Made by a program: the position numbers and the translations under genes. 64,000 bases of DNA, from positions 2,216,303 through 2,280,302 of the forward strand of contig CM082582.2 of assembly GCA_040954595.2 (NCBI GenBank), written 5' to 3'. Shown in pieces: positions 18,498 through 46,110 of the stretch; within the stretch, counting starts at the first letter, position 1, and each line of letters starts with the position of its first letter. Under the pieces are notes generated by a model, which saw only the letters and a program-made list of their open reading frames with translations, had not been told where the DNA came from and searched no databases. This stretch comes from Balanoglossus misakiensis. Lineage: Eukaryota > Animalia > Hemichordata.

Positions 18498-18499
18498 TT

Positions 18500-18580
18500 T
18501 TAGTTCCAATTATTAAGGATAAAACTAAGCTTTGTAGTGATGCCAGTAACTACCGGCCGATAGCACTAGCAACTGTTTTT
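18500..18580 (+). mobile_element. Resumption of LINE ORF2 (RT N-terminal motif)
   Basis: LVPIIKDKTKLCSDASNYRPIALATVF joins in frame to AIKVI ending at 10570. NYRPI is the canonical LINE RT motif. Confidence 0.93.
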
Positions 18581-19934: not shown

Positions 19935-19949
19935 TTTTTGAGCATATTT

Positions 19950-20400
19950 GGGGGCACAAGCGCCCTCAGGCGGCTTGTGCCCCCATTGTTATTGTTGGAA
20001 TTTTTCTTTATTAGGGCCCAAGCGCACGCAAGCGCTTGGGCCCTATTGGTTTTGTTGGAATTTTTAGGGCCCAAGCGCACGCAAGCGCTTGGGCCCTATT
20101 GGTTTCGTTGGAATTTTTTAGGGCCCAAGCGCAACAAGCAAGCGCTTGGGCCCTATTGGTTTCGTTGGAATTTTTCTTTCTTTCTTTAGGGCCCAAGCGC
20201 TTGCTTGCGCTTGGGCCCTATTGGTTTCGTTGGGGTTTTTAGGGCCCAAGCGCAAGCAAGCGCTTGGGCCCTATTGGTTTCGTTGGAATTTTTTAGGGCC
20301 CAAGCCCAGCAGGCTTGGGCCCTATTGGTATTACTGGGGTTTTTTAGGGCACAAGCCCCACAGGCTTGTGCCCTATTGGTATTGTTGGCTTTTTTCTTCT
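19950..20400 (+). repeat. Stack of eight heads from three subfamilies
   Basis: Divergent head gggggcacaagc...gcttgtgccccc at 19950; family A heads at 20013, 20066, 20120, 20188 and 20241; family B heads (followed by ggtatt) at 20295 and 20346. Confidence 0.95.
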
Positions 20401-23400
20401 ACTTCTTCTTGGGCACTTTTTTCGGCCAGGTAGATCTGAAAAACTGCTGAACCCAAAAATCTCAAATTTGGCACAATGGTGCAGGCCAATGAGAGCTGGT
20501 GCAGTACCCTCGTGAATGTTCAATAAGTCATGTGACCTGATGACCATATATGGGCAAAATTTTCAAATCGGCCTTATTTGCATATGCACGGAGATATCAA
20601 AATTCTTTTAGCAACTTTTGTGAACCATGTGGTCAGGGTTCTACATGCCAAATGTCAAGGCCATAGGCCTTGTCAATTTTGAGAAGAAGATTTTTAAGTA
20701 TTATTTTTCATATTTTTCGGCCAAGCCATCGGCCTATACTATACATAGTTAAGCTTTGACCACATTTTATTTTGGATGAATATGCAGTCATATCTCAAAA
20801 TATGTTGGGCCGATCAACTCCAAGTTTGGTGTGCAGGTAGCTTAGCATTTGCCAATAATTTTAAGCGAAAAAAATTAATATGAAAAATCGACCGATTTTT
20901 TTATATTAATTTTTTTATGAAATTTATACCTTTACTTATACCTCTATGGTTAAGCTATGTCCACGTCTTATTGTAGAATTCTGGTCTGTGCAATGTTCCT
21001 GTACACTGACTGTCTATTGGCCCGTGCGCAGAATGGGACCAAAATAAAAGGCAAAATTTTGGGCTCACCTGTAACACCTGCTTAACTCATTAATTATGCA
21101 CATACCTCATTCCGGGCTAACTAATAGGGCTAGAGGTATTGTTCTTGTGTGACAAGGACTAGTATGGGGTCAAAAATGTTTACCAAATTTTCGGTGACCT
21201 CAGGTGACCTTTGACCTACTTTCCTATATCTCGGCATCCAGAGCAGGTACAGACTTGGCGTTTGGAGGGTTGTGACTAAAATTGAAAAGCCAAAATGGGG
21301 ATCACCTGTGACACCTGCATATCTCATTAATTATGTGCATACCTAATTCCAGGATGACCAGTAGAGCTATAGGTTTGGTTTTTGTTGAACATGGACCAGT
21401 ATAGGGTCAAAATTTCTTGCCCAAATTTCGCATGACCTCAGGTGACCTTTGACCTACTTTACCATATCTTGGCATCCAGAGCAGGTACAGACTTGGCGTT
21501 CGGAGGGTTGGGATTAAAATTGAAAAGCCGAATTGGCGCTCACCTGTGTCACCTGCATATCTCATTAATTATGTGCATACCTAATTCCAGGCTAACCAAT
21601 AGAGCTATAGGTTTGGTTTTTGTTAAACATGGACCAGTATAGGGTCAAAATTTCTTGCCCAAATTTTGCATGACCTCAGGTGACCTTTGACCTACTTTAC
21701 CAGATCTCGGCATCCAGAGCAGGTACAGGCTTGGCGTTTGGAGGGTTGGGACTAAAATTGGAAAGCCAAATTGGGGGTCAGTTGTGACACCTGCCTACCT
21801 CATTAATTATGTGCATACCTAATTTCAGGCTAACCAATAGGGCTATAGGTTTGGTTTTTGTTGAACATGGACCAGTATAGGGTCAAAATTTCTTGCCGAA
21901 ATTTTGCATGACCTCAGGTGACCTTTGACCTACTTAACCATATCTTGGCATCCAGAGCAGATATGCTTATTGCTATGTTGCTATGTGCTATGTTGGCTTG
22001 GGCCCGCTATTGCTGCTTGCAGCTATATTCTTCTACTTCTTCTTCTTTTTCTTCTTCTGTCATTTTCTTTGGCGAGGTAGATCTGGAAAACTGCTAAACC
22101 TACCAATTTCAAACTTGGCACAATGGTGCAGGCCAATGAGAGCTAGTGCAGTACCCTTGTGAATGTTTAATTAGTCACGTGACCTGATGACCATATATGG
22201 GCAAAATTTTCAAATCCGCCTTATTTGCATATGAATGGAGATATCACAATTCTTTTAGCAACTTTTGCGGACCATGTGGTCAGTGTCCTACATGCCAAAT
22301 GTCAAGGCCATTGGCCATGCCAATTTTGAGAAGAAGATTTTTAAGTATTATTTTCCATATTTTTTGACCAAGCCATGGGCCTATACTTTACATAGTAAAG
22401 CTATGACCACATATTATTTTGGAGAAATAAGCATACATATCTCAAAATCTGTTAGGCCGATCATCTCCAACTTTGGTGTGCAGCAAGCCTAGCATTTGTC
22501 AATAATTTTAAGCAGAAAAAAATAATATGAAAAATCGACAGATTTTTTTATATTAATTTGTTTATTAAATTTATACCTTTGCTTATACCTCTATGGTTAA
22601 GCTATGTCCATGTCTTATTGTGGAATTCTGGTCAGTGCGATAGTCCTGTACAGTGAGTGTCTATTGGTCAGTGAGCACAATGGCACCAAAATAAAAGGCA
22701 AAATTTTAGGCTCACCTGTAACACCTGCTTAACTCATTAATTATGTGCATACCTAATTCTGGGCTAACTAAGAGGGCTAGATGTTTCGTTCTTGTGGGAC
22801 ATGGACCAGTATAGGGCCAACATTTCTTGCCCAAATTTGGGGTGAACTCAGGTGACCTTTGACCTACTTTCCTATATCTCGGCATCCAGAGCAGGTACAG
22901 ACTTGGCGTTTGGAGGGTTGGGACTAAAGTTGAAAAGCCAAAATAGGGGTCACCTGTGACACCTGCATATCTCATTAATTATGTGCATACCTAATTCCAG
23001 GCTAACCAATAGGGCTATAGGTTTTGTTTTTGTTGAACATGGACCAGTACAGGGTCAAAATTTCTTGCCCAAATTTTGCATGACCTCAGGTGACCTTTGA
23101 CCTACTTTACCAGATCTTGGCATCGAGAGCAGGTACAGACTTGGCGTTTGGAGGGTTGGGACTAAAATTGAAAAGCCAAATTGGGGGGTCACCTGTGACA
23201 CCTGCCTACCTCATTAATTATGTGCATACCTAATTCCAGGCTAACCAATAGGGCTATAGGTTTGGTTTTTGATGAACATGGACCAGTATAGGGTCAAAAT
23301 TTCTCGCCCAAATTTTGCATGACCTCAGGTGACCTTTGACCTACTTTTCCATATCTTGGCATCCAGAGCAGATATGCTTATTGCTATGTTGCTATGTGCT

Positions 23401-23440
23401 ATGTTGGCTTGGGCCCGCCATTGCTGCTTGCAGCTATATT
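20295..23440 (+). mobile_element. Two nested family-B HINE-like elements
   Basis: Two B heads are followed by two B bodies with a (CTT)n linker, a distinct body sequence and tails ending gcagctatatt. Confidence 0.85.
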
Positions 23441-24874
23441 CTTTCTTTCTTTCTTTCTTTCTTTATTCTCCTGTCAATTCTTCGGCCAACGAGATCTCTG
23501 AAACTACTGCAGGTACACTGCTCAAACTTGCTACAGTGGTCAAGGTCAATGAGTAGATGTGCAGTGGCTTGTGAATATTTAATTAGTCACGTGACATGGC
23601 GGCCATATTGGATTTTCTAAAAAAAATGCAAATCTCAGATCTCAGAAACTACAAGTCAGATCGACTTCAGATTTGGCGTGCAGGTAGTCTACCTTCTGCC
23701 CATCATTTTTGTAATTGTATATTTTGCTGTCAATGTTGCAGTTTTTTTGCTACAGTTGTTTTTCTGAAATCTGGCTTAAATTTCAAAAATCTTCTTCTCC
23801 AGAACCGGTGATAACCGAGTCACGCGGTTTGGGGTATATGGTCACCAAACTGATGTCTATCAAGTTTGCGAAGATCATTGTGATTGGTCGAAGATTATGG
23901 CGGCCATATTAGATTTTCGAAAAACCATAGTAAAACTCCAAAAATCTTCTTCTCCAGAAGGGGCAATAACTGAGTCGCAAGATTCGGGGAGTATGGTCTC
24001 TACACTGATGTCTATCAAGTTTGCCAGGAGCATTGTGATTGGTCGAAGATTATGGCGGCCATATTGGATTTTGTAAAAAGCAATGAAAAATTGAAATTCC
24101 TTTTTCTAGTCTAAAAATTGATAGCATACAAATTCTTTTCATGGATATCAATCGTCATGTGACTAAAATATGTTACAAATTTTAGGCGATTTTTCACATG
24201 ACCTTTGACCTACTTTTCACGCATTATTATTTCTGCATATCTAATTCCAGGCTAACCTATAGGGGTAGACGTTTGGTTTTTGATGCATGTGGATTAGTGT
24301 GTGATCAAAATATTTTGCTACTTTCCATGACCCCTTTGACCTCTGCTCACCTCATTAATTATGTGCATAGCTAATTACGGGCGAACCAATAGAGCTAGAG
24401 GTTTGGTTTTTGTTGGACATGGACCAGTATGGGATCAAAATTTTTTGCCCAAATGTTGGGTGACCTCTGGTGACCTTTGACCTACTTTCGCGTATCTCAA
24501 CATCCAGAGCAGATACAGCATTGGCATTTGGCAGGATGGGACCAAAATGTAAAGCCACATTTTTGGGTCACCTGTGACACCTGTTGACCTCATTAGATAT
24601 GCACATACCTTATTACCGGTGAACCAATAGAGCTAGAGTTTTGGTTTTTGTTGGACATGGCCCAGTATGGGTCAAAAAATTTTGCCCAAATGTTGGGTGA
24701 CCTGAGGTGACCTTTGACCTACTTTACTCTATTTCAGCAGCAAAAATACATATGTCCTTGTTATGTCATGAGATAAAACACCCGATAGAGCATTCTGTTT
24801 CTTCTGAATCATACTGTGCATATATAATACCGGATCAGCGCTTGGGCCCGGCAATGCTGCTTGCAGCTTTAATT

Positions 24875-25140
24875 AGGGCCCAAGCGCATACCAGCGCTTG
24901 GGCCCTATTGGTTTCGTTGGAATTTTTAGGGCCCAAGCGCAAGCAAGCGCTTGGGCCCTATTGGTTTCGTCTGGGTTTTTCTGTCTTTAGGGCCCAAGCG
25001 CATACCAGCGCTTGGGCCCTATTGGTTTCGTTGGGGTTTTTCAGTCTTTCTTTCCTTCTTAGGGCCCAAGCGCAAGCAAGCGCTTGGGCCCTATTGGTTT
25101 CGTTGGGGTTTTTCTGTCTTTCCTTCTTTCTTCTTTCTTT
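24875..25140 (+). repeat. Stack of four heads
   Basis: Heads at 24875, 24928, 24989 and 25061; near-copy of the stack at 26555. Confidence 0.95.
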
Positions 25141-26554
25141 CTTTATTCTTGTGTCAATTCTTTGTCGCTCTAGATCTCAGACACCGCTGCAGGTACACTT
25201 CTGAAACTTGCTACAGTGGTCAAGGTCAATGAGTAGTCGTGCATTGAACCCTTGAATTTTTAATTAGTCACGTGACCTGGCGGCCATCTTGGATTTTCTG
25301 AAAAAATGCAAATCTCAGATCTCAGAAACTTCAAGTCAGATCAACTTCAAATTTGGCATGCAGGTAGACTACCTTCTACCCATCATTTTTGTAATTGGAA
25401 ATTTTGCTGTCAATGTTGCAGTTTTTTCGCTACAATTTTTTTTCTGAAATCTGGCTTAAATTTCAAAAATCTTCTTCTCCAGAACCGGTGATAACCGAGA
25501 CACGGGGTTTGGGGTATGTGGTCACCTAACTGATGTCTATCAAGTTTGCGAAGATCATTGTGATTGGTCGAAGATTATGGCGGCCATATTGGATTTTCAA
25601 AAAACCATAGTTAAACTCCAATAATCTTCTTCTCCAGAATGGGCGATGACTGAGTTGCAAGATTCGGGGAGTATGGTCTCTACACTGATGTCTATCAAGT
25701 TTGCCAGGAGCATTGTGATTGGTCGAAGATTATGGCGGCCATATTGGATTTTGTAAAAAGCAATGAAAAATTGAAATTCCTTTTTCTAGTCTAAAAATTG
25801 ATAGCATACAAATTCTTTTCATGGATATCAATCGTCATGTGACTAAAATATGTTACAAATTTTAGGCGATTTTTCACATGACCTTTGACCTACTTTTCAC
25901 GCATTATTATTTCTGCATATCTAATTCCAGGCTAACCTATAGGGGTAGACGTTTGGTTTTTGATGCATGTGGATTAGTGTGTGATCAAAATATTTTGCTA
26001 CTTTCCATGACCCCTTTGACCTCTGCTCACCTCATTAATTATGTGCATAGCTAATTACGGGCGAACCAATAGAGCTAGAGGTTTGGTTTTTGTTGGACAT
26101 GGACCAGTATGGGATCAAAATTTTTTGCCCAAATGTTGGGTGACCTCTGGTGACCTTTGACCTACTTTCGCGTATCTCAACATCCAGAGCAGATACAGCA
26201 TTGGCATTTGGCAGGATGGGACCAAAATGTAAAGCCACATTTTTGGGTCACCTGTGACACCTGTTGACCTCATTAGATATGCACATACCTTATTACCGGT
26301 GAACCAATAGAGCTAGAGTTTTGGTTTTTGTTGGACATGGCCCAGTATGGGTCAAAAAATTTTGCCCAAATGTTGGGTGACCTGAGGTGACCTTTGACCT
26401 ACTTTACTCTATTTCAGCAGCAAAAATACATATGTCCTTGTTATGTCATGAGATAAAACACCCGATAGAGCATTCTGTTTCTTCTGAATCATACTGTGCA
26501 TATATAATACCGGATCAGCGCTTGGGCCCGGCAATGCTGCTTGCAGCTTTAATT

Positions 26555-26925
26555 AGGGCCCAAGCGCATACCAGCGCTTGGGCCCTATTGGTTTCGTTGG
26601 AATTTTTAGGGCCCAAGCGCAAGCAAGCGCTTGGGCCCTATTGGTTTCGTTGGAATTTTTAGGGCCCAAGCGCACAGCAGCGCTTGGGCCCTATTGGTTT
26701 CGTCTGGGTTTTTCTGTCTTTAGGGCCCAAGCGCATACCAGCGCTTGGGCCCTATTGGTTTCGTTGGGGTTTTTCAGTCTTTCTTTCCTTCTTAGGGCCC
26801 AAGCGCAAGCAAGCGCTTGGGCCCTATTGGTTTCGTTGGGGTTTTTTAGGGCCCAAGCGCAAGCAAGCGCTTGGGCCCTATTGGTTTCGTTGGAATTTTT
26901 CTTTCTTTCTTTCTTTCTTTCTTTA
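26555..26925 (+). repeat. Stack of six heads
   Basis: Heads at 26555, 26608, 26661, 26722, 26794 and 26848. Confidence 0.95.
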
Positions 26926-29900
26926 TTCTCCTGTCAATTCTTCGGCCAACGAGATCTCTGAAACTACTGCAGGTACACTGCTCAAACTTGCTACAGTGGT
27001 CAAGGTCAATGAGTAGATGTGCAGTGGCTTGTGAATATTTAATTAGTCACGTGACATGGCGGCCATATTGGATTTTCTAAAAAAAATGCAAATCTCAGAT
27101 CTCAGAAACTACAAGTCAGATCGACTTCAGATTTGGCGTGCAGGTAGTCTACCTTCTGCCCATCATTTTTGTAATTGTATATTTTGCTGTCAATGTTGCA
27201 GTTTTTTTGCTACAGTTGTTTTTCTGAAATCTGGCTTAAATTTCAAAAATCTTCTTCTCCAGAACCGGTGATAACCGAGTCACGCGGTTTGGGGTATATG
27301 GTCACCAAACTGATGTCTATCAAGTTTGCGAAGATCATTGTGATTGGTCGAAGATTATGGCGGCCATATTAGATTTTCGAAAAACCATAGTAAAACTCCA
27401 AAAATCTTCTTCTCCAGAAGGGGCAATAACTGAGTCGCAAGATTCGGGGAGTATGGTCTCTACACTGATGTCTATCAAGTTTGCCAGGAGCATTGTGATT
27501 GGTCGAAGATTATGGCGGCCATATTGGATTTTGTAAAAAGCAATGAAAAATTGAAATTCCTTTTTCTAGTCTAAAAATTGATAGCATACAAATTCTTTTC
27601 ATGGATATCAATCGTCATGTGACTAAAATATGTTACAAATTTTAGGCGATTTTTCACATGACCTTTGACCTACTTTTCACGCATTATTATTTCTGCATAT
27701 CTAATTCCAGGCTAACCTATAGGGGTAGACGTTTGGTTTTTGATGCATGTGGATTAGTGTGTGATCAAAATATTTTGCTACTTTCCATGACCCCTTTGAC
27801 GTCTGCTCACCTCATTAATTATGTGCATAGCTAATTACGGGCGAACCAATAGAGCTAGAGGTTTGGTTTTTGTTGGACATGGACCAGTATGGGATCAAAA
27901 TTTTTTGCCCAAATGTTGGGTGACCTCTGGTGACCTTTGACCTACTTTCGCGTATCTCAACATCCAGAGCAGATACAGCATTGGCATTTGGCAGGATGGG
28001 ACCAAAATGTAAAGCCACATTTTTGGGTCACCTGTGACACCTGTTGACCTCATTAGATATGCACATACCTTATTACCGGTGAACCAATAGAGCTAGAGTT
28101 TTGGTTTTTGTTGGACATGGCCCAGTATGGGTCAAAAAATTTTGCCCAAATGTTGGGTGACCTGAGGTGACCTTTGACCTACTTTACTCTATTTCAGCAG
28201 CAAAAATACATATGTCCTTGTTATGTCATGAGATAAAACACCCGATAGAGCATTCTGTTTCTTCTGAATCATACTGTGCATATATAATACCGGATCAGCG
28301 CTTGGGCCCGGCAATGCTGCTTGCAGCTTTAATCTGTCTTTCCTTCTTTCTTCTTTAGGGCCCAAGCGCATACCAGCGCTTGGGCCCTATTGGTTTCGTT
28401 GGGGTTTTTCTTTCTTTCTTTCTTTCTTTCTTTATTCTTCTGTCAATTCTTTGTCGCTCTAGATCTCAGACACCGCTGCAGGTACACTTCTGAAACTTGC
28501 TACAGTGGTCAAGGTCAATGAGTAGTCGTGCATTGAACCCTTGAATTTTTAATTAGTCACGTGACCTGGCGGCCATATTGGATATTCTGAAAAAATGCAA
28601 ATCTCAGATCTCAGAAACTACAAGTCAGATCGACTTCAAATTTGGTGTGCAGGTAGTCTACCTTCTACCCATCATTTTTGTAATTGGTTATTTTGCTGTG
28701 AATGTTGCAGTTTTTTTGCTACAATTTTTTTTCTGAAATCTGGCTTAAATTTCAAAAATCTTCTTCTCCAGAACCGGTGATAACCGAGTCACGCGGTTTG
28801 GGGTATGTGGTCACCTAACTGATGTCTATCAAGTTTGCGAAGATCATTGTGATTGGTTGAAGATTATGGCGGCCATATTGGATTTTCGAAAAACCCTAGT
28901 AAAATTTCAAAAATCTTCTTCTCAAGAACCGGCGATAACCGAGTCACAAGATTTGGTGTGTGTGGTCACTAAACAGATGTCTATCAAGTTTGCGAAGAGG
29001 AATGTGATTGGTCGAAGATTATGGCGGCCATATTGGATTTTGTGAAAAACGATTAAAAAGTAAAAATTCCCTTTCTAGCCTAAAAATTGATAGCACAGAA
29101 ATGCTTTTTATGGATATGAATCTTCATATGACAAGAATAAGCTATAAATATTTTGGTAATTTTGGCAATGACCTTTGACCTACTTTTGACGCATGATTTT
29201 TCTGCATATCTAATTCCAGGCTAACCAATAGGGCTATAAGTTTGGTTTTTGATGTATGTCGATTTGTATGTGATCCAAAAATTTTGCTACTTTTCATGAC
29301 CCCTTTGACCTCTGCTGACCTCATTAAATATGTACATACCTAATTACAGATGAACCAATAGACCTAGAGATTTTGTTTTTGTTATACATGGACCAGTATG
29401 GGGTCAAAATATTTTGCCCAAATGTTGGGTGACCTCAGGTGACCTTTGACCTACTTTTGCATATCTCGACATCCACAGCAGATACAGCCTTGGCGTTTGG
29501 AGGTATGGGGCCATAATGAAAAGCCAAAGTTTTGGGTCACCTGTGACACCTGCTTAACTCATTAATTATGTGCATACCTAATTATAGGCTAACCAAAAGG
29601 GCTAGAGGTCTGGTTTTTGTTGGACATGGACCACTATGGGTCAAAATTTTCTGCCCAAATTTTGGATGACCTCAGATGACCTTTGACCTACTTTTGCATA
29701 TCTCGGCATCCAAAGCAGGTACAGCCTTGGCATTTGGAGGTATGGGGCCATAATGAAAAGCCAAAGCCAAAGTTTTGGGTCACCTGTGACACCTGCTTTA
29801 CGCATTATTTATGTGCATACCTAATTCCAGGCTAACCAAAAGGGCTAGAGGTCTGGTTTTTGTTGGACATGGACCACTATGGGTTAAAATTTTCTGCCCA

Positions 29901-32900
29901 AATGTTGGGTGACCTCTGGGTGACCTTTGACCTACTTAACACTTTATCAGCACCAAACATAGATATAACCTTGATATTTCATGGGATAGAACAGCATTAT
30001 GTTTCTACTCATTAATTATGTGCATATCTAATATCAGATCAGATAATAGAGCTTGGGCCCGGACAATGCTGCTTGCAGCTTTAATTAGGGCCCAAGCGCA
30101 TACCAGCGCTTGGGCCCTATTGGTTTCGTTGGGGTTTTTCTGTCTTTCCTTCTTTCTTCTTTCTTTCTTTCTTTCTTTATTCTTGTGTCAATTCTTTGTC
30201 GCTCTAGATCTCAGACACCGCTGCAGGTACACTTCTCAAACTTGCTACAGTGGTCAAGGTCAATGAGTAGTCGTGCATTGAACCTGTGAATTTTTAATTA
30301 GTCACGTGACCTGGCGGCCATCTTGGATTTTCTAAAAAAATGCAAATCTCAGATCTCAGAAACTACAAGTCAGATCGACTTCAAATTTGGCATGCTGGTA
30401 GACTACCTTCTGCCCATCATTTTTGTAATTGGAAATTATGCTGACAATGTTGCAGTTTTTTTGCTACAATTTTTTTTCTGAAATCTGGCTTAAATTTCAA
30501 AAATCTTCTTCTCCAGAACCGGCGATAACCGAGTCACGTCGTTTGGGGTATGTGGTCACCTAACAGATGTCTATCAAGTTTGCGAAGATCATTGTGATTG
30601 GTCGAAGATTATGGCGGCCATATTGGATTTTCGAAAAACCATAGTAAAACTTCAAAAATATTCTTTTCCAGAACGGGCGATAACCGAGTCACAAGATTTG
30701 GTGTGTGTGGTCATTAAACAGATGTCTATCAAGTTTGAGAAGGGGAATGTGATTGGTCGAAGATTATGGCGGCCATATTGGATTTTGTGAAAAACGATTA
30801 AAAAGTAAAAATTCCTTTTCTAGCCTAAAAATTGATAGCACAGAAATTCTTTAGATGGATATGAATCATCATATGACAAGAATAAGCTATAAATATTTTG
30901 GTAATTTTGGCAATGACCTTTGACCTACTTTTGACGAATCATTTTTCTGCATATCTAATTCCAGGCTAACCAATACGGCTATAAGTTTGGTTTTTGATGT
31001 ATGTGGATTTGTATGTGATCAAAAAATGTTGCTACTTTTCATGACCCCTTTGACCTCTGGTGACCTCATTAAATATGCGCATACCTAATTAATGATGAAC
31101 CAATAGACCTAGAGGTTTTGTTTTTGTTATACATGGACCAGTATGGGGTCAAAAATTTTTGCCCAAATGTTGGGTGACCTCGGGTGACCTTTGACCTACT
31201 TTGGCATATCTTGACATCCACAGCAGATACAGCCTTGGCGTTTGGAGGTATAGGGCCATAATGAAAAGCCAAAGTTTCGGGTCACCTGTGACACCTGCTT
31301 AACTCATTATTTATGTGCATACCTAATTCCGGGCTAACCAAAAGGGCTAGAGATCTGGTTTTTGTTGGACATAGACCATTATGGGTCAAAATATTCTGCC
31401 CAAATAATTGGTGACCTCTGGGTGACCTTTGACCTACTTAATACTATGTCAACAACAAACCTAGATATAACCTTGATATTTTATGGGATAAAACACAGCA
31501 TTATGTTTCTACTCATTAATTATGTGCATATCTAATAATCAGATCAGATAATAGAGCTTGGGCCCGAACAATGCTGCTTGCAGCTTTAATTAGGGCCCAA
31601 GCGCATACCAGCGCTTGGGCCCTATTGGTTTCGTTGGGGTTTTTCTTTCTTCTTTCTTTCTTTATTCTTGTGTCAATTCTTTGTCGCTCTAGATCTCAGA
31701 CACCGCTGCAGGTACACTTCTGAAACTTGCTACAGTGGTCAAGGTCAATGAGTAGTCGTGCATTGAACCTGTGAATTTTTAATTAGTCACGTGACCTGGC
31801 GGCCATATTGGATTTTCTGAAAAAATGCAAATCTCAGATCTCCGAAACTACAAGTCAGATCAACTTCAAATTTGGTGTGCAGGTAGTCTACCTTCTACCC
31901 ATCATTTTTGTAATTGGATATTTTGCTGTAAATGTTGCAGTTTTTTTGCTACAATTTTTTTTCTGAAATCTGGCTTAAATTTCAAAAATCTTCTTCTCCA
32001 GAACCGGTGATAACTGAGTCACGCGGTTTGGGGTATGTGGTCACCTAACTGATGTCTATCAAGTTTGCGAAGATCATTGTGATTGGTCGAAGATTATGGC
32101 GGCCATATTGGATTTTCGAAAAACCATAGTAAAACTTCAAAAATCTTCTTCTCAAGAACGGGCGATAACCGAGTCACAAGATTTGGTGTGTGTGGTCATT
32201 AAACAGGTGTCTATCAAGTTTGCGAAGGGGAATGTGATTGGTCGAAGATTATGGCGGCCATATTGGATTTTGTGAAAAACGATTAAAAAGTAAAAATTCC
32301 TTTTCTAGCCTAAAAATTGATAGCACAGAAATTCTTTTTATGGATATGAATCATCATATGACAAGAATAAGCTATAAATATTTTGGTAATTTTGGCAATG
32401 ACCTTTGACCTACTTTTGACGCATCATTTTTCTGCATATCTAATTCCAGGCTTACCAATAGGGCTATAAGTTTGGTTTTTGATGTATGTGGATTTGTATG
32501 TGATCAAAAAATGTTGCTACTTTTCATTACCCCTTTGACCTCTGGTGACCTCATTAAATATGCGCATACCTAATTAATGATGAACCAATACACCTAGAGG
32601 TTTTGTTTTTGTTATACATGGACCAGTATGGGGTCAAAATATTTTGCCCAAATGTTGGGTGACCTCGGGTGACCTTTGACCTACTTTTGCATATCTCGAC
32701 ATCCACAGCAGATACAACCTTGGCGTTTGGAGGTATGGGGCCATAATGAAAAGCCAAAGTTTTGGGTCACCTTTGACACCTGCTTAACTCATTATTTATG
32801 TGCATACCTAATTCCGGGCTAACCAAAAGGGCTAGAGGTCTGGTTTTTGTTGGACATGGACCACTATGGGTCACAATTTTCTGCCCAAATTGTGGGTGAC

Positions 32901-35900
32901 CTCTGGGTGACCTTTGACCTACTTAACACTATATCAACACCAAGCATAGATATAACCTTGATATTTCATGGGATAAAACACAGCATTATGTTTCTACTCA
33001 TTAATTATGTGCATATCTAATAATCTGATCAGATAATAGAGCTTGGGCCCGGACAATGCTGCTTGCAGCTTTAATTCTTTCTTTATTCTTGTGTCAATTC
33101 TTTGTCGCTCTAGATCTCAGACACCGCTGCAGGTACACTTCTGAAACTTGCTACAGTGGTCAAGGTCAATGAGTAGTCGTGCATTGAACCCTTGAATTTT
33201 TAATTAGTCACGTGACCTGGCGGCCATCTTGGATTTTCTGAAAAAATGCAAATCTCAGATCTCAGAAACTTCAAGTCAGATCAACTTCAAATTTGGCATG
33301 CAGGTAGACTACCTTCTACCCATCATTTTTGTAATTGGAAATTTTGCTGTCAATGTTGCAGTTTTTTCGCTACAATTTTTTTTCTGAAATCTGGCTTAAA
33401 TTTCAAAAATCTTCTTCTCCAGAACCGGTGATAACCGAGACACGGGGTTTGGGGTATGTGGTCACCTAACTGATGTCTATCAAGTTTGCGAAGATCATTG
33501 TGATTGGTCGAAGATTATGGCGGCCATATTGGATTTTCAAAAAACCATAGTTAAACTCCAATAATCTTCTTTTCCAGAATGGGCGATGACTGAGTTGCAA
33601 GATTCGGGGAGTATGGTCACTACACTGATGTCTATCAAGTTTGCAAAGAGCATTGTGATTGGTCGAAGATTATGGCGGCCATATTGGATTTTGTAAAAAG
33701 CAGTGAAAATTTTAAATTCCTTTTTCTAATCTAAAAATTGATAGCATACAAATTCTTTTTATGGATATAAATCGTCATGTGACTAAAATATGTTACAATT
33801 TTTTGGTGATTTTTCACATGACCTTTGACCTACTTATCACGCGTTATTATATCTGCATATCTAATTCCAGGCTAACCTATAGGGCTAGACGTTTGGTTTT
33901 TACTGAATGTGGATTAGTGTGTGATCAAAATATTTTGCTACTTTTCATGACCCCTTTGACCTCTGCTGACCTCATTAATTATGTGCATAGCTAATTACAG
34001 GCGAACCAATAGAGCTAGAGGTTTGGTTTTTGTTGGACATGGACCAGTATGGGATCAAAATTTTTTGCCCAAATGTTGGGTGACCTCTGGTGACCTTTGA
34101 CCTACTTTCGCATATCTCAGCATCCAGAGCAGATACAGCCATGGCATTTGGTAGGATGGGACCAAAATGTAAAGCCACATTTTTGGGTCACCTGTGACAC
34201 CTGCTGACCTCATTAAATATGCACATACCTAATTACAGGCGAACCAATAGAGCTAGAGTTTTGGTTTTTGTTGGACATGGACCAGTATGGGTAAAAAAAA
34301 AATGCCCAAATGTTGGGTGACCTCAGGTGACCTTTGACCTACATCACCCTATTTCAGCAGCAAAAATACACACGTCCTTGTTATGTCATGAGATAATACA
34401 TCCGATAGAAAATTCTGTTTCTTCTCATTCATACTGTGCATATATAATTCAAGATCAGCGCTTGGGCCCGACAATGCTGCTCGCAGCTTTAATTAGGGCC
34501 CAAGCGCATACCAGCGCTTGGGCCCTATTGGTTTCGTTGGGGTTTTTCAGTCTTTCTTTCCTTCTTTATTCTTGGTTCCATTTTTCGGCCACCTAAATCT
34601 CAAAAACTGCAGCACCAACCAGGCTGAAACTTGGTAGGCAGATAGGGGCCAATGAGTAGATGTGCAGTGGCTCGTGAATATTTAATTAGTCACGTGACCT
34701 GGCGGCCATATTGGATTTTCTGAAAAAATGCAAATCTCAGATCTCAGAAACTACAATTCAGATTGACTTCAAATTTGGTGTGCAGCTAGTATACCTTATG
34801 CCCATCATTTTTGTAATTGGATATTATGCTGTCAATGTTGCAGTTTTTTTGCTACAGTTGTTTTTCTGAAATCTGGTCAAATTTTCAAAAATCTTCTTCT
34901 CCAGAACCGGCAATAACCGAGTCACGCCATTTGAGGTATGTGGTCACCTAACTGATGTCTATCAAGTTTGCGAAGATCATTGTGATTGGTCGAAGATTAT
35001 GGCGGCCATATTGGATTTTCGAAAAACCATAGTAAAACTTCAAAAATCTTCTTCTCCAGAACGGGCAATAACTGAGTCGCAAGATTCGGGGAGTATGGTC
35101 ACAACACTGATGTCTATCAAGTCTGCAAAGAGCATTGTGATTGGTCGAAGATTATGGCGGCCATATTGGATTTTGTAAAAAGCAGTGAAAAATTGAAATT
35201 CCTTTTCCTTGTCTAAAAATTGATAGCATCTAAATTCTGTTCATGGATATCAATCGTCATGTGACTAAAATATGTTACAAATTTTTGGCGATTTTTCACA
35301 TGACCTTTGACCTACTTATCACGCGTTATTATTTCTGCATATCTAATTCCAGGCTAACCTATAGGGCTAGACTTTTGGTTTTTGATGCATGTGGATTAGT
35401 GTGTGATCAAAATATTTTGCTACTTTTCATGACCCCTTTGACCTCTGCTGACCTCATTAATTATGTGCATAGCTAATTACAGGCGAACCAATAGAGCTAG
35501 AGGTTTGGTTTTTGTTGGACATGGACCAGTATGGGATCAAAAATTTTTGTCCAATTGTTGGGTGACCTCTGGTGACCTTTGACCTACTTTCGCATATCTC
35601 AGCATCCAGAGCAGATACAGCCATGGCATTTGGTAGGATGGGACCAAAATGTAAAGCCACATTTTTGGGTCACCTGTGACACCTGCTGACCTCATTAAAT
35701 ATGCACATACCTAATTACAGACGAACCAATAGAGCTAGAGTTTTGGTTTTTGTTGGACATGGACCAGTATGGGTCAAAAAAATTGCCCAAATGTTGGGTG
35801 ACCTCAGGTGACCTTTGACCTACTTCACCCTATTTCAGCAGCAAAAATACACACATCCTTGTTATGTCATGAGATAATACATCCGATAGAAAATTCTGTT

Positions 35901-38821
35901 TTTTCTCATTCAAACTGTGCATATGTAATTCAAGATCAGCGCTTGGGCCCGACAATGCTGCTCGCAGCTTTAATTTATTCTTGGTTCCATTTTTCGGCCA
36001 CCTAAATCTCAAAAACTGCAGCACCAACCAGGCTGAAACTTGGTAGGCAGATAGGGGCCAATGAGTAGATGTGCAGTGGCTCGTGAATATTTAATTAGTC
36101 ACGTGACCTGGCGGCCATATTGGATTTTCTGAAAAAATGCAAATCTCAGATCTCAGAAACTACAAGTCAGATTGACTTCAAATTTGGTGTGCAGCTAGTA
36201 TACCTTATGCCCAACATTTTTGTAATTGGATATTATGCTGTCAATGTTGCAGTTTTTTTGCTACAGTTGTTTTTCTGAAATCTGGTCAAATTTTCAAAAA
36301 TCTTCTTCTCCAGAACCGGCGATAACCGAGTCACGCCATTTGAGGTATGTGGTCACCTAACTGATGTCTATCAAGTTTGCGAAGATCATTGTGATTGGTC
36401 GAAGATTATGGCGGCCATATTGGATTTTCGAAAAACCATAGTAAAACTTCAAAAATCTTCTCCTCCAGAACGGGCGATAACCGAGTCACAAGATTTGGTG
36501 TGTGTGGTCATTAAACAGATGTCTATCAAGTTTGCGAAGGGGAATGTGATTGGTCGAAGATTATGGCGGCCATATTGGATTTTGTGAAAAACGATTAAAA
36601 AGTAAAAATTCCTTTTCTAGCCTAAAAATTGATAGCACAGAAATTCTTTTTATGGATATGAATCATCATATGACAAGAATAAGCTATAAATATTGTGGTA
36701 ATTTTGGCAATGACCTTTGACCTACTTTTGACGCATCATTTTTCTGCATATCTAATTCCAGGCTAACCAATAGGGCTATAAGTTTGGTTTTTGATGTATG
36801 TGGATTTGTATGTGATCAAAAAATTTTGCTACTTTTCATGACCCCTTTGACCTCTGCTGACCTCATTAAATATGCACATACCTAATTACAGATGAACCGA
36901 TAGACCTAGAGATTTTGTTTTTGTTATACATGGACCAGTATGGGGTCAAAATATTTTGCCCAAATGTTGGGTGACCTCGGGTGACCTTTGACCTACTTTT
37001 GCATATCTCGACATCCACAGCAGATACAGCCTTGGCATTTGGAGGTATGGGGCCATAATGAAAAGCCAAAGTTTTGGGTCACCTGTGACACCTGCTTTAC
37101 TCATTATTTATGTGCATACCTAATTCCGGGCTAACCAAAATGGCTAGAGGTCTGGTTTTTGTTGGACATGGACCACTATGGGTCAAAATGTTCTGCCCAA
37201 ATTGTGGATGACCCCTGGGTGACCTTTGATGTTTCTACTCATTAATTATGTGCATATCTAATAATCAGATCAGATAATAGAGCTTGGGCCCGGACAATGC
37301 TGCTTGCAGCTTTAATTCTTTCTTTATTCTTGGTTCCATTCTTTGGCCAACGAGATCTCAGACACCGCTGCAGGTACACTTCTCAAACTTGCTACAGTGG
37401 TCAAGGTCAATGAGTAGATGTGCAGTGACTTGTGAATACTTAATTAGTCACGTGACCTGGCGGCCATATTGGATTTTCTGAAAAAATGCAAATCTCAGAT
37501 CTCAGAAACTACAAGTCAGATCGACTTCAAATTTGGCATGCAGGTAGACTTCCTTGTACCCATCATTTTTGTAATTAGAAATTTTGCTGTCAATGTTGCA
37601 GTTTTTTTGCTACAGTTGTTTTTCTGAAATCTGGCTTAAATTTCAAAAATCTTCTTCTCCAGAACCGGTGATAACCGAGTCACACCGTTTGGGGTATGTG
37701 GTCACCTAACTGATGTCTATCAAGTTTGCGAAGATCATTGTGATTGGTCGAAGATTATGGCGGCCATATTGGATTTTCGAAAAACCGTAGTTAAACTCCA
37801 AAAATCTTCTTCTCCAGAACAGGCGATGACTGAGTCGCAAGATTCGGGGAGTGTGGTCACTACACTGATGTCTATCAAGTTTGCAAAGAGCATTGTGATT
37901 GGTCGAAGATTATGGCGGCCATATTGAATTTTGTAAAAAGCAGTGAAAAATTTAAATTCCTTTTTCTAGTCTAAAAATTGATAGCATACAAATTCTTTTC
38001 ATGGATATCAATCGTCATATGACTACAATATGTTACAAATTTTTGGCGATTTTTCACATGACCTTTGACCTACCTATCACGCGTTATTATTTCTGCATAT
38101 CTAATTCCAGGCTAACCTATAGGGCTAGACGTTTGGTTTTTGATGAATGTGGATTAGTGTGTGATCAAAATATTTTGCTACTTTTCATGACCCTTTTGAC
38201 CTCTGCTGACCTCATTAATTATGTGCATAGCTAATTACAGGCGCACCGATAGAGCTAGAGGTTTGGTTTTTGTTGGACATGGACCAGTATGGGATCACCA
38301 TTTTTTGCCCAAATGTTGGGTGACCTCTGGTGACCTTTGACCTACTTTCGCATATCTCAGCATCCAGAGCAGATACAGCCATGGCATTTGGTAGGATGGG
38401 ACCAAAATGTAAAGCCACATTTTTGGGTCACCTGTAACACCTGCTGACCTCATTAAATATGCACATACCTAATTACAGGCGAACCAATAGAGCTAGAGTT
38501 TTGGTTTTTGTTGGACATGGACCAGTATGGGTAAAAAAAATTGCCCAAATGTTGGGTGACCTCAGGTGACCTTTGACTTACTTCACCCTATTTCAGCAGC
38601 AAAAATACACACATCCTTGTTATGTCATGAGATAATACATCCGATAGAAAATTCTGTTTCTTCTCATTCATACTGTGCATATATAATTCAAGATCAGCGC
38701 TTGGGCCCGACAATGCTGCTCGCAGCTTTAATTCTTTCTTTCTTTCTTTATTCTTGTGTCAATTCTTCGGCCAACGAGATCTCTGAAACTACTGCAGGTA
38801 CACTTCTCAAACTTGCTACAA

Positions 38822-41800
38822 TGGTCAAGGTCAATGAGTAGATGTGCAGTGACTTGTGAATACTTAATTAGTCACGTGACCTGGCGGCCATATTGGATTT
38901 TCTGAAAAAATGCAAATCTCAGATCTCAGAAACTACAAGTCAGATCGACTTCAAATTTGGCATGCAGGTAGACTACCTTCTACCCATCATTTTTGTAATT
39001 GGAAATTTTGCTGTCAATGTTGCAGTTTTTTTGCTACAATTTTTTTTCTGAAATCTGGCTTAAATTTCAAAAATCTTCTTCTCCAGAACCGGTGATAACC
39101 GAGACACGGGGTTTGGGGTATGTGGTCACCTAACTGATGTCTATCAAGTTTGCGAAGATCATTGTGATTGGTCGAAGATTATGGCGGCCATATTGGATTT
39201 TCGAAAAACCATAGTTAAAATCCAAAAATCTTCTTCTCCAGAACTGGAGATGACTGAGTTGCAAGATTCGGGGAGTATGGTCACTACACTGATGTCTATC
39301 AAGTTTGCAAAGAACATTGTGATTGGTCGAAGATTATGGCGGCCATATTGGATTTTGTAAAAAGCAGTGAAAAATTGAAATTCCTTTTTCTAGTCTAAAA
39401 ATTGATAGCATACAAATTCTTTTTATGGACATCAATCGTCATGTGACTAAAATATTATACAATTTTTTGGCGATTTTTCACATGACCTTTGACCTACTTA
39501 TCACGCATTATTATTTCTGCATATCTAATTCCAGGCTAACCTATAGGGCTAGACGTTTGGTTTTTGATGAATTTGGATTAGTGTGTGATCAAAATATTTT
39601 GCTACTTTTCATGACCCCTTTGACCTCAGCTGACCTCATTAATTATGTGCATAGCTAATTACACGCGAACCAATAGAGCTAGAGGTTTGGTTTTTGTTGG
39701 ACATGGACCAGTATGGGATCAAAATTTTTTGCCCAAATGTTGGGTGACCTCTGGTGACCTTTGACCTACTTTCGCATATCTCAGCATCCAGAGCAGATAC
39801 AGCCATGGCATTTGGTAGGATGGGTCCAAAATGTAAAGCCACATTTTTGGGTCACCTGTAACATCTGCTGACCTCATTAAATATGCACATACCTAATTAC
39901 AGGCGAACCAATAGAGCTAGAGTTTTGGTTTTTGTTGGACATGGTACAGTATTGGTCAATAAATTTTGCCCAAATGTTGGGTGACCTCAGGTGACCTTTG
40001 ACCTACTTTACTCTATTTCAGCAGGAAAAATACATATGTCCTTGTTATGTCATGAGATAAAACACCTGATAGAGCATTCTGTTTCTTCTCATTCATACTG
40101 TGCATATATAATACCGGATCAGCGCTTGGGCCCGACAATGCTGCTTGCAGCTTTAATCTTTCTTTCTTTCTTTATTCTTGTGTCAATTCTTTGGGCAACG
40201 AGATCTCAGACACCGCTGCAGGTACACTTCTCAAACTTGCTACAGTGGTCAAGGTCAATGAGTAGATGTGCAGTGACTTGTGAATACTTAATTAGTCACG
40301 TGACCTGGCGGCCATATTGGATTTTCTGAAAAAAATCAAATCTCAGATCTCAGAAACTACAAGTCAGATCGACTTCAAATTTGGCATGCAGGTAGACTAC
40401 CTTCTACCCATCATTTTTGTAATTGGAAATTTTGCTGTCAATGTTGCAGTTTTTTTGCTACAATTTTTTTTCTGAAATCTGGCTTAAATTTCAAAAATCT
40501 TCTTCTCCATAACCGGTGATAACCGAGACACGGGGTTTGGGGTATGTGGTCACCTAACAGATGTCTATCAAGTTTGCGAAGATCATTGTGATTGGTCGAA
40601 GATTATGGCGGCCATATTGGATTTTCGAAAAACCATAGTTAAACTCCAAAAATCTTCTTCTCCAGAACGGGCGATGACTGAGTCGCAAGATTCGGGGAGT
40701 ATGGTCACTACACTGATGTCTATCAAGTTTGCAAAGAACATTGTGATTGGTCGAAGATTATGGCGGCCATATTGGATTTTGTAAAAAGCAGTGAAAAATT
40801 GAAATTCCTTTTTCTAGTCTAAAAATTGATAGCATACAAATTCTTTTTATGGATATCAATCGTCATGTGACTAAAATATGTTACAATTTTTTGGCGATTT
40901 TTCACATGACCTTTGACCTACTTATCACGCGTTATTATTTCTGCATATCTAATTCCAGGCTAACCTATAGGGCTAGACGTTTGGTTTTTGATGAATGTGG
41001 ATTAGTGTGTGATCAAAATATTTTGCTACTTTTCATGACCCCTTTGACCTCTGCTGACCTCATTAATTATGTGCATAGCTAATTACAGGCGAATCAATAG
41101 AGCTAGAGGTTTGGTTTTTGTTGGACATGGACCAGTATGGGATCAAAATTTTTTGCCCAAATGTTGGGTGACCTCTGGTGACCTTTGACCTACTTTCGCG
41201 TATCTCAGCATCCAGAGCAGATACAGCCATGGCATTTGGTAGGATGGGACCATAATGTAAAGCCACATTTTTTGGGTCACCTGTGACACCTGCTGACCTC
41301 ATTAAATATGCACATACCTAATTACAGGCGAACCAATAGAGTTAGAGTTTTGGTTTTGGTTGGACATGGACTAGTATGGGTAAAAAAAAATTGCCCAAAT
41401 GTTGGGTGACCTTAGGTGACCTTTCACCTACTTCACCCTATTTCAGCAGCAAAATACACACATCCTTGTTATGCCATGAGATAATACATCCGATAGAAAA
41501 TTCTGTTTCTTCTCATTCATACTGTGCATATATAATTCAAGATCAGCGCTTGGGCCCGACAATGCTGCTCGCAGCTTTAATTCTTTCTTTCTTTCTTTAT
41601 TCTCCTGTCAATTCTTCGGCCAACGAGATCTCTGAAACTACTGCAGGTACACTGCTCAAACTTGCTACAGTGGTCAAGGTCAATGAGTAGATGTGCAGTG
41701 ACTTGTGAATACTTAATTAGTCACGTGACCTGGCGGCCATATTGGATTTTCTGAAAAAATGCAAATCTCAGATCTCAGAAACTACAAGTCAGATCGACTT

Positions 41801-44644
41801 CAAATTTGGCATGCAGGTAGACTACCTTCTACCCATCATTTTTGTAATTGGAAATTTTGCTGTCAATGTTGCAGTTTTTTTGCTACAATTTTTTTTCTGA
41901 AATCTGGCTTAAATTTCAAAAATCTTCTTCTCCAGAACCGGTGATAACCGAGACACGGGGTTTGGGGTATGTGGTCACCTAACTGATGTCTATCAAGTTT
42001 GCGAAGATCATTGTGATTGGTCGAAGATTATGGCGGCCATATTGGATTTTCGAAAAACCATAGTTAAAATCCAAAAATCTTCTTCTCCAGAACTGGAGAT
42101 GACTGAGTTGCAAGATTCGGGGAGTATGGTCACTACACTGATGTCTATCAAGTTTGCAAAGAACATTGTGATTGGTCGAAGATTATGGCGGCCATATTGG
42201 ATTTTGTAAAAAGCAGTGAAAAATTGAAATTCCTTTTTCTAGTCTAAAAATTGATAGCATACAAATTCTTTTTATGGACATCAATCGTCATGTGACTAAA
42301 ATATTATACAATTTTTTGGCGATTTTTCACATGACCTTTGACCTACTTATCACGCATTATTATTTCTGCATATCTAATTCCAGGCTAACCTATAGGGCTA
42401 GACGTTTGGTTTTTGATGAATTTGGATTAGTGTGTGATCAAAATATTTTGCTACTTTTCATGACCCCTTTGACCTCAGCTGACCTCATTAATTATGTGCA
42501 TAGCTAATTACACGCGAACCAATAGAGCTAGAGGTTTGGTTTTTGTTGGACATGGACCAGTATGGGATCAAAATTTTTTGCCCAAATGTTGGGTGACCTC
42601 TGGTGACCTTTGACCTACTTTCGCATATCTCAGCATCCAGAGCAGATACAGCCATGGCATTTGGTAGGATGGGTCCAAAATGTAAAGCCACATTTTTGGG
42701 TCACCTGTAACATCTGCTGACCTCATTAAATATGCACATACCTAATTACAGGCGAACCAATAGAGCTAGAGTTTTGGTTTTTGTTGGACATGGTACAGTA
42801 TTGGTCAATAAATTTTGCCCAAATGTTGGGTGACCTCAGGTGACCTTTGACCTACTTTACTCTATTTCAGCAGGAAAAATACATATGTCCTTGTTATGTC
42901 ATGAGATAAAACACCTGATAGAGCATTCTGTTTCTTCTCATTCATACTGTGCATATATAATACCGGATCAGCGCTTGGGCCCGACAATGCTGCTTGCAGC
43001 TTTAATCTTTCTTTCTTTCTTTATTCTTGTGTCAATTCTTTGGGCAACGAGATCTCAGACACCGCTGCAGGTACACTTCTCAAACTTGCTACAGTGGTCA
43101 AGGTCAATGAGTAGATGTGCAGTGACTTGTGAATACTTAATTAGTCACGTGACCTGGCGGCCATATTGGATTTTCTGAAAAAAATCAAATCTCAGATCTC
43201 AGAAACTACAAGTCAGATCGACTTCAAATTTGGCATGCAGGTAGACTACCTTCTACCCATCATTTTTGTAATTGGAAATTTTGCTGTCAATGTTGCAGTT
43301 TTTTTGCTACAATTTTTTTTCTGAAATCTGGCTTAAATTTCAAAAATCTTCTTCTCCATAACCGGTGATAACCGAGACACGGGGTTTGGGGTATGTGGTC
43401 ACCTAACAGATGTCTATCAAGTTTGCGAAGATCATTGTGATTGGTCGAAGATTATGGCGGCCATATTGGATTTTCGAAAAACCATAGTTAAACTCCAAAA
43501 ATCTTCTTCTCCAGAACGGGCGATGACTGAGTCGCAAGATTCGGGGAGTATGGTCACTACACTGATGTCTATCAAGTTTGCAAAGAACATTGTGATTGGT
43601 CGAAGATTATGGCGGCCATATTGGATTTTGTAAAAAGCAGTGAAAAATTGAAATTCCTTTTTCTAGTCTAAAAATTGATAGCATACAAATTCTTTTTATG
43701 GATATCAATCGTCATGTGACTAAAATATGTTACAATTTTTTGGCGATTTTTCACATGACCTTTGACCTACTTATCACGCGTTATTATTTCTGCATATCTA
43801 ATTCCAGGCTAACCTATAGGGCTAGACGTTTGGTTTTTGATGAATGTGGATTAGTGTGTGATCAAAATATTTTGCTACTTTTCATGACCCCTTTGACCTC
43901 TGCTGACCTCATTAATTATGTGCATAGCTAATTACAGGCGAATCAATAGAGCTAGAGGTTTGGTTTTTGTTGGACATGGACCAGTATGGGATCAAAATTT
44001 TTTGCCCAAATGTTGGGTGACCTCTGGTGACCTTTGACCTACTTTCGCGTATCTCAGCATCCAGAGCAGATACAGCCATGGCATTTGGTAGGATGGGACC
44101 ATAATGTAAAGCCACATTTTTTGGGTCACCTGTGACACCTGCTGACCTCATTAAATATGCACATACCTAATTACAGGCGAACCAATAGAGTTAGAGTTTT
44201 GGTTTTGGTTGGACATGGACTAGTATGGGTAAAAAAAAATTGCCCAAATGTTGGGTGACCTTAGGTGACCTTTCACCTACTTCACCCTATTTCAGCAGCA
44301 AAATACACACATCCTTGTTATGCCATGAGATAATACATCCGATAGAAAATTCTGTTTCTTCTCATTCATACTGTGCATATATAATTCAAGATCAGCGCTT
44401 GGGCCCGACAATGCTGCTCGCAGCTTTAATTCTTTCTTTCTTTCTTTATTCTCCTGTCAATTCTTCGGCCAACGAGATCTCTGAAACTACTGCAGGTACA
44501 CTGCTCAAACTTGCTACAGTGGTCAAGGTCAATGAGTAGATGTGCAGTGACTTGTGAATACTTAATTAGTCACGTGACCTGGCGGCCATATTGGATTTTC
44601 TGAAAAAATGCAAATCTCAGATCTCAGAAACTACAAGTCAGATC
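38822..44644 (+). repeat. Near-perfect tandem duplication of a two-element unit, period 2849 bp
   Basis: Seven ORF-track entries recur with identical translation at +2849 (e.g. 38910/41759, 39991/42840, 41376/44225). Confidence 0.93.
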
Positions 44645-45856: not shown

Positions 45857-46110
45857 AGGGCCCAAGCGCTTGCTTGCGCTTGGGCCCTATTGGTTTCGTT
45901 GGGGTTTTTAGGGCCCAAGCGCACGCAAGCGCTTGGGCCCTATTGGTTTCGTTGGAATTTTTAGGGCCCAAGCGCACGCAAGCGCTTGGGCCCTATTGGT
46001 TTCGTTGGAATTTTTCTTTCTTTCCGGCTTTCTTTACGGGCCCAAGCCAAGCCAGGCTTGGGCCCGTATTGGTTTCGTTGGAATTTTACTTTCTTTCTTT
46101 CTTTCTTTCT
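45857..46110 (+). repeat. Stack of four heads
   Basis: Heads at 45857, 45910, 45963 and 46036. The last is a variant, acgggcccaagc...gcttgggcccgt. Confidence 0.95.

Follow-up and report, generated by a model that had tools for sequence, protein, structure and literature searches.

A 64,000-nucleotide stretch of the genome of the hemichordate Balanoglossus misakiensis (GCA_040954595.2, contig CM082582.2, forward-strand positions 2,216,303 to 2,280,302), here called the window, is filled almost completely between 10.6 and 59.8 kb by copies of a transposable element of 1.4–1.7 kb. These copies very probably form a nested pile of non-autonomous Helentrons, each lying 21–53 bases behind the 5' hairpin of another and all in one orientation, which likely grew as copies repeatedly inserted into one another by rolling-circle movement, with no target duplication; the pile was later reshuffled, likely by unequal crossing-over. 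Helitron-like elements are described, in the available text of three reports, as moving in a copy-and-paste manner by a rolling-circle mechanism that uses a Rep/helicase and leaves no target duplication (PMC4067079; PMC5148889; PMC11417382). Heads and tails were mapped on both strands of the window, element starts being placed at the T of TAGGG, one base to the left of the positions used in an earlier note on this DNA.

Structure and Classification of the Elements

Each element consists, in order, of a hairpin head, a spacer, a T-run, a CT microsatellite (the linker of the earlier note), a body and a tail. The 5' subterminal inverted repeat (subTIR), GGGCCCAAG, lies 2 bases from the element start and forms the hairpin with its inverse nearby; all three head hairpins that were folded are stable (z –4.2 to –6.9), and no shuffle equalled any of them. 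The microsatellite is a CT-rich 4-base tract, and the body contains internal repeats of ~155 and ~240 bases with 75–89% identity, a long subtype of 1730–1740 bases (10694, 12227, 28356) having one extra 240-base central repeat. In the tail, the 3' subTIR CTTGGGCCC, found 23–25 bases from the element end in 28 of 28 tails, is followed by a short palindrome and by a TTTAAT or TATAT end; the palindrome, of 4–5 pairs, is present in every tail and folds no better than shuffles (z 1.1 and –0.4). A second, divergent family is 73–82% like the main one across the shared parts. At rejoined sites no target duplication of at least 2 bases is seen: element 26793 rejoins without an extra base, and at the rejoined 20240 the T count is off by one, a one-base T duplication being indistinguishable from a terminal T. 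The coding capacity of the elements amounts to scattered chance frames.

The units are non-coding, non-autonomous Helentrons (HLE2) of the HINE/DINE-1 type, showing every HINE character that could be tested. In the accessible descriptions of DINE-1/HINE elements (Thomas, Vadnagara and Pritham, 2014, PMC4067079) and of the oyster Cg_HINE (PMC7492417), the layout is similar: a 5' subTIR with a nearby inverted repeat, a 4-base microsatellite, central tandem repeats, a 3' subTIR, T-rich targets, no target duplication and a variable number of terminal T; the short stem-loop described after the 3' subTIR has a candidate counterpart in the tail palindrome. Helitron2, as far as the available text goes, shares the asymmetric terminal inverted repeats, the 5' hairpin, a 3' repeat 20–30 bases from the end and a target reading TTTT then T/C (Bao and Jurka, 2013, PMC3627910). 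Two other classes were considered and rejected. A canonical Helitron1 (5' TC, 3' CTRR, A^T target, no inverted repeats) is ruled out by the TAGGG start, the TTTAAT/TATAT ends and the subTIRs, and a miniature inverted-repeat transposable element, or another cut-and-paste transposon with terminal inverted repeats, by the asymmetry of the repeats and by the lack of a duplication of 2 bases or more.

Some heads differ in sequence within the hairpin itself. The head at 46035–46070 has a compensated hairpin end, TACGGGCCC being paired with GGGCCCGTA, and heads 19950 and 20345 carry GGGCACAAG arms on both sides; from these letters, the hairpin appears to be kept despite sequence change.

Organization of the Pile

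Heads and tails were paired on the + strand by a push/pop (last-in-first-out) parse. There are 35 heads and 28 tails on this strand, against a single tail and no head on the – strand. The parse closes 28 elements, of which 11 are intact and 17 split, and seven heads remain open in the window. The main parts are as follows.

8954–10569 (+), continuing at 18499–18579 and 19932–19949: host long interspersed nuclear element (LINE), endonuclease and region leading into reverse transcriptase (Exo_endo_phos, E 5e-9; pieces translated separately, joints in contigs)
10570–18498 (+): five elements in a balanced block, 5 heads against 5 tails, within the LINE (stack parse, contigs)
19950–20239 (+): five unclosed heads, base of the large stack; the lowest (19950) belongs to the other family and lies in the same LINE
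20240–24873 (+): three-level nest of two families, 20240 > 20294 > 20345; head 20294 takes the body 22029–23439
24874–26553 (+): apparent product of tandem duplication, three duplicated heads and the chimeric element 25060 (crossover 25656–25679)
26554–26720 (+): three stacked heads, 26554, 26607 and 26660; stack partner of 26660 is 37317–38732
26721–26792 (+): head and start of the linker of element 26721 (26722 in the earlier note)
26793–26846 (+): 5' hairpin head carrying the subTIR (–18.9 kcal/mol, z –6.1), then the first piece of the 26793 linker
26847–28333 (+): whole element at the T-run, 22 bases behind the host hairpin arm, 2 differences from the rejoined 20240
28334–28355 (+): middle linker piece of element 26793, matching the 25060 linker
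28356–33075 (+): three whole, non-identical tandem elements (28356–30085, 30086–31590, 31591–33075) at a second site in the 26793 linker (76–334 differing columns between pairs)
33076–34493 (+): last linker piece, body and tail of element 26793
34494–35974 (+): whole element in the 26721 linker, sibling of 26793 and intact reference for the 26721 pairing
35975–37316 (+): body and tail of element 26721, 5' part like 34494, 3' part of another subtype
38822–44644 (+): exact tandem duplication with a period of 2849, adding two bodies (2974 identical bases, crossover 41671–41795)
45856–51795 (+): four-level nest, 45856 > 45909 > 45962 > 46036 (stack pairing second by score)
51796–57657 (+): nest of two levels, 51796 > 51881, with an unrelated insertion of 2.86 kb (54012–56874) in the outer body
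57661–59760 (+), end approximate: two second-family heads and one body with additional central repeats; the tail is absent from the window

Evidence That Heads and Bodies Pair as Nested Brackets

The arrangement first described for element 26793, whose linker was said to lie in three pieces split by four whole elements, is borne out in all its coordinates and inserts. When rejoined, the element equals the 25060 element without a single difference over the first 572 of 1494 columns and then differs at 55. The predicted partner of the next head down was likewise recovered: 26721–26792 joined to 35975–37316 shows no difference from the intact 34494 in the first 263 columns, after which the two diverge (220 differing columns in all), the body 35975–37316 being ~70 bases shorter than usual. 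Other split copies also match intact ones: 10694, rejoined across 3.2 kb, has 10 differences in 1730 from the intact 28356, and 20240 has 2 differences in 1488 from the intact 26847. The divergent family follows the same bracket order, head 20294 with the body at 22029 matching the intact 57712 at 388 of 400 positions (12 differences).

An empty site was found in contigs from two runs, X1 and X2, of one sample, in which 10567 is joined to 18497 and 10568 to 18499, skipping 7929–7930 bases; the LINE site around the block 10570–18498 thus occurs unoccupied at the rejoined length, one of the joining contigs showing a single different letter at the seam. The same contigs also join 18579 to 19932, which places both the inverted piece 18580–19934 and the lowest head, 19950, in that LINE.

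Pairing was further assessed by a seam permutation, in which the right pieces were shuffled among the split copies and scored against 12 intact 5' ends in four settings each. The stack order is favoured with all 17 split copies (p 0.00004–0.002), with the 16 of the main family (p 0.0004–0.03), with the 11 outside 38.7–45.8 kb (p 0.0003–0.007) and with the strictest set of 10, from which 20240 was dropped and 25060 was removed as a reference (p 0.005–0.028). Scored block by block, it is the best order for 20240/20294 and for 26660/26721/26793, and tied best in the first block; without 25060 as a reference, it remains narrowly best in the 26660/26721/26793 block (18 against 19). The proposal made beforehand, that nested insertion pairs heads with bodies in last-in-first-out order, is supported by the parse, the LINE empty site, the rejoined copies and the permutation. 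A further rule, by which heads with a ttgctt loop should take bodies with the variant cttttttcttgtg, holds in part: heads 10570 and 45856 pair with the only two such bodies, a pairing with a chance of 1 in 120 among the 16 split main-family copies that was chosen after the fact, while for a third ttgctt head, 20187, the window contains no body of this type.

A pile of this kind could also have arisen as a tandem repeat, by rolling-circle read-through or slippage, with a 53-base head minisatellite and a 1.43 kb body satellite and no nesting at all. Tail-to-head junctions do exist (8 of 35 heads stand directly after a tail), and two of the tandem duplications are real, as is, probably, the loss of 53 bases between heads. 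Neighbouring copies, however, differ at 76–334 columns and in length, split linkers rejoin exactly, two families interleave in bracket order and the LINE closes around a balanced block. This origin, which the split linkers and the 20294/22029 pairing contradict, is very improbable.

Landing Sites

The 35 heads, all on one strand, lie in the linker of another copy (24), directly after a tail (8), three bases after a tail (1) or in the LINE (2), and never in a body. From the 25 host seams four were dropped (three duplicated heads and one ambiguous case). All of the 21 kept lie 21–53 bases behind the 3' arm of the host head hairpin, and 13 of them at 21–22 bases, the end of the T-run. This hot spot reads TTTT then T or C, and eight of the 21 seams are not at a TTTT run. 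As the first 100 bases of an element hold only 12–13% of its TT sites and 2–4 of its 35–44 TTTT positions (four copies), the TTTT-then-T/C preference alone leaves the sparing of the bodies unexplained.

According to the nested-insertion reading, a new copy would insert just behind the head hairpin of a resident one, splitting the host linker; repeated insertion would make heads and bodies pair like nested brackets, and unequal crossing-over would later reshuffle the pile. That copies are targeted beside resident heads can be held with high confidence, and the chances that they are guided there by motif binding rather than by open DNA beside the hairpin are about even. In a more specific form, which is tentative and rather unlikely, the transposase would bind the subTIR of the resident copy and cut at a fixed distance behind it (21–22 bases at the hot spot, matching the end of the element itself, and at weaker sites ~29–33, 40–44 and 53, one helical turn apart). 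In sequence and orientation the head arm is identical to the tail subTIR, behind which the element ends at 23–25 bases. The eight outer seams are at 29, 29, 33, 40, 41, 41, 44 and 53 bases, and their helical phasing (p 0.03–0.05, with a null partly assumed for two unclosed heads) is a hint, too weak to claim and useful as a lead only, longer periods fitting equally well when the phase is not constrained.

Self-insertion may also proceed with no recognition of a motif, if the preference for TTTT then T/C, together with open, easily unwound DNA by the 16-pair hairpin (a cruciform), makes the linker the most accessible target. This is a serious contender, to which we give somewhat less than an even chance. 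The Helitron2 target and the T-rich preference of HINEs agree with it in the accessible parts of both descriptions (PMC3627910; PMC4067079), as do the folding of the head hairpins at z –4 to –7, the two LINE targets that lack the motif and the spread of the seams over 21–53 bases. Accessibility by itself gives no reason for all 35 heads to face one way, although a bias of the T-rich strand accounts for this in part, and the match of the hot-spot distance to the tail geometry would be due to chance.

Duplications and Recombinant Copies

Two tandem duplications, with sharp crossovers in 25060 and 41582, have altered the pile. In the first, 994 bases are identical between 23977–24970 and 25657–26650, through the tail and into the next two heads, and the heads of 24874–25059 repeat 26554–26792 minus one 53-base unit. 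Up to 25656, the 25060 body agrees with the one at 33085 at 50 of 51 informative sites; from 25679 it agrees with the body just upstream, 23465, at 54 of 54. By these matches, 25060 is the chimeric crossover junction of a tandem duplication of ~1.7 kb, not an independent copy, and its pattern is the one expected if the bodies of 20240 and 26793 recombined by unequal crossing-over. The comparison made in the earlier note (25061 against 26794) is hence no independent control, the copy being a recombinant from duplication of the 26554–26793 stack itself. Made by duplication of that site, it records the site before the four insertions, or on a chromosome without them; it is good empty-site evidence, yet the variants that the two bodies share are identity by duplication. 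The 61-codon frames at 25306 and 33246, which had been cited among those variants, are indeed identical, and merely restate the DNA identity of the copies. As genes they were rejected, as the same frame runs for 9–62 codons across the 21 copies found.

The second duplication, of exactly 2849 bases, agrees with the earlier attribution of the disturbed pairing at 38.7–45.8 kb to duplications, and the five copies of that zone carry no signal in the seam permutation (p 0.70–0.80). It could also be an assembly error. That the whole pile, or its exact duplications, is an artefact of assembly is highly unlikely: 2974 identical tandem bases, an exact inverted copy of 1355 bases and the fact that no record spans the pile speak for it, but mis-assembly cannot readily make ~25 distinct, diverged copies in bracket order, and the 24874 block differs from its twin by the 53-base loss; serious doubt is limited to the 2849-base duplication. 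Together the two duplications add three heads and two bodies, and with both corrected the greatest nesting depth is 11, not 14. The stray bases 57658–57660 then fall in the 20119 linker and continue the usual linker end of the family.

Two further cases of copying were noted. The copies 20240–24873 and 26847–28333 are 2 differences apart and 3.5 kb from each other, one having since been interrupted by two elements of the other family; their near-identity suggests local copying shortly before the burst of the second family. At 18580–19934 (–) lies an exact inverted copy, 1355 bases long, of 15610–16964, which starts at a tail subTIR, extends across the following linker and most of the body after it, and replaces ~5 LINE bases, with 3 shared bases at one junction; it resembles either a templated insertion of very recent date or an aberrant rolling-circle product.

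Observations Against the Bracket Pairing

Several observations weigh against a strict bracket pairing. The congruence of head and body trees, a check proposed beforehand, is not significant within the main family in any of eight Mantel runs (rho 0.01–0.09, p 0.29–0.52); with the divergent family included, head core and body are correlated (rho 0.48–0.50, p 0.02), and a nearest-neighbour variant of the test gives p 0.017–0.19. Bodies are mosaics, the nearest relative changing along their length, which loosens the linkage of head and body, and the failure within the main family is attributed to this and to the few sites that heads carry. The stack pairing falls short of the optimal assignment (194 against 171), and in the 45856 block it comes second of six pairings (29 against 27). 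After correction, the pairing at 38.7–45.8 kb still appears ambiguous, body 40158 fitting either 20065 or 20119 better than head 26554, its stack partner, and body 44431 fitting heads 26607 or 20065 better than 20187, the ttgctt head that has no matching body. Given these better-fitting partners and the seven heads unclosed in the window, some heads may be orphans or some bodies lost. Before the two LINE insertions no arm motif was seen in the same orientation, which means that insertion does not require it. The contigs derive from a single sample, possibly the source of the assembly, and are too short to span the pile; those compared with 26655–26848 gave no joint for these seams, no contig of a third run, X3, was placed, and a loose contig end behind 26721, which continues as CT microsatellite, is too weak to count.

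Part of the head stack might instead have arrived as composites, if the transposase begins at the outermost head of a nest and runs on to the first tail, thereby moving several heads with one body. This would yield orphan heads and could also explain 24874–26553, which has four heads and one body. Copies with multiple 5' ends are reported in Fusarium, together with such a model, in the available part of Chellapan et al. (2016, PMC5148889), and an HLE2 with two left ends in that of a Xenopus study (PMC11417382). The excess of heads (35 against 28 tails) and the mismatches at 38.7–45.8 kb would fit, as would a contig of depth 771 across the head-on-head junction 26720 (the other X2 records shown have 6–195), which has only 14 letters on one side. 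On the other hand, the body in 24874–26553 is a sharp chimera, its 3' half equal to the upstream body and the identity running through the tail into the next heads, as unequal crossing-over predicts; the block 10570–18498 is balanced and closes in the LINE, and the excess heads may close past the end of the window. A composite origin for part of the head stack is less likely than not.

Comparison With Known Systems

The comparisons that follow extend to the accessible portions of the papers cited. DINE-1/HINE elements are described there as dispersed or clustered, whereas here they are nested 11 deep in their own microsatellite; self-targeting is not described for Helitron2 in that portion of PMC3627910, and here eight of 21 seams lie off a TTTT run. 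The closest parallel is FoHeli with multiple 5' termini, in which short (<200 base) repeated 5' ends are explained by self-insertion near the 5' end, one case with three copies being reported in Metarhizium (Chellapan et al., 2016, PMC5148889). There, self-insertion was inferred from double heads and one nested example; here host bodies are in place, the depth is 11 and the seams can be measured. In maize, nesting near or inside relatives likewise gives Helitrons several ends (PMC3288121), and the Xenopus element HelenXT233 has two left ends (PMC11417382); unlike the present elements, those of maize are canonical Helitron1, mostly with multiple 3' ends, and no fixed landing distance is described in the text available. 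A literature search over the main texts of mostly open-access papers returned no account of HINEs lying deep within their own microsatellite, one inside another, and none of a fixed distance of landing, and the accessible part of PMC3630058 contains nothing on self-nesting. It is well supported that the pile is a new family showing an already proposed self-insertion habit unusually clearly and deeply.

A search with the tail pattern gave no match in prokaryote genomes and 27 matches, in 26 loci, in metagenomes. All 27 have the tail palindrome, which the search pattern itself imposes, and they resemble the window elements over the last 30–37 bases only. Four of the 26 loci are tail-to-head: in three, two of which are 97% alike, the head follows directly, and in the fourth it follows after 3 bases; no head stack was seen in these contigs of 1–8 kb. 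The related family with the tail motif is found at:

L006:1092–1150, L013, L019 and L023 (tail-strand coordinates): metagenome relatives

Neighbouring Genes and Insertions

Past the last head, at a distance of 5 kb, lies a possible source of the transposase:

62865–64000 (–): 3' end of a Helentron Rep/helicase/endonuclease gene (Exo_endo_phos, E 3e-11)

Here the end of a helicase is fused to an endonuclease, and the gene, whose right end lies beyond the window, has an open 3' end and is reversed relative to the heads, an orientation sometimes seen in Helitron2 according to the available text (PMC3627910). The best matches of its protein, 53–58% identical, are Rep/helicase/endonuclease proteins of marine invertebrates with PF14214, PF05970 and PF03372; no relative was found in viral contigs. 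It is a candidate, from its domains, for the source of the transposase, and head 57712 may be the left end of the autonomous element that carries it. No continuation of the LINE after 57.7 kb was found in a motif scan.

The insertion at 54012–56874 is an unrelated DNA transposon of 2.86 kb in a body, with terminal inverted repeats of 15–16 bases and an AATT (or AT) duplication; it has decayed coding remnants and is not named by Pfam, YqaJ (E 0.088) being below the cut-off. At 7423–8259 (–), 700 bases from the LINE, a frame of 278 codons has weak COR-A and COR-B matches (exon of a Roco-type gene).

Implications

Arrays of this kind call for caution in annotation, as they resemble headless tandem repeats, and "intact controls" within an array can be duplicates of the very site under test. 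The pile is an ordered record of about thirty insertions, in which nesting gives relative ages and the order of subfamily activity, and it shows that the copies are recombinant mosaics. The fixed landing distance makes the target choice of Helentrons testable. If cutting is indeed guided by the subTIR, the element carries and regenerates its own landing pad, which would provide a measurable rule of target selection for a class with poorly known integration. A target next to the head that renews itself would be a safe-haven strategy and a route from a dispersed element to a satellite-like array.

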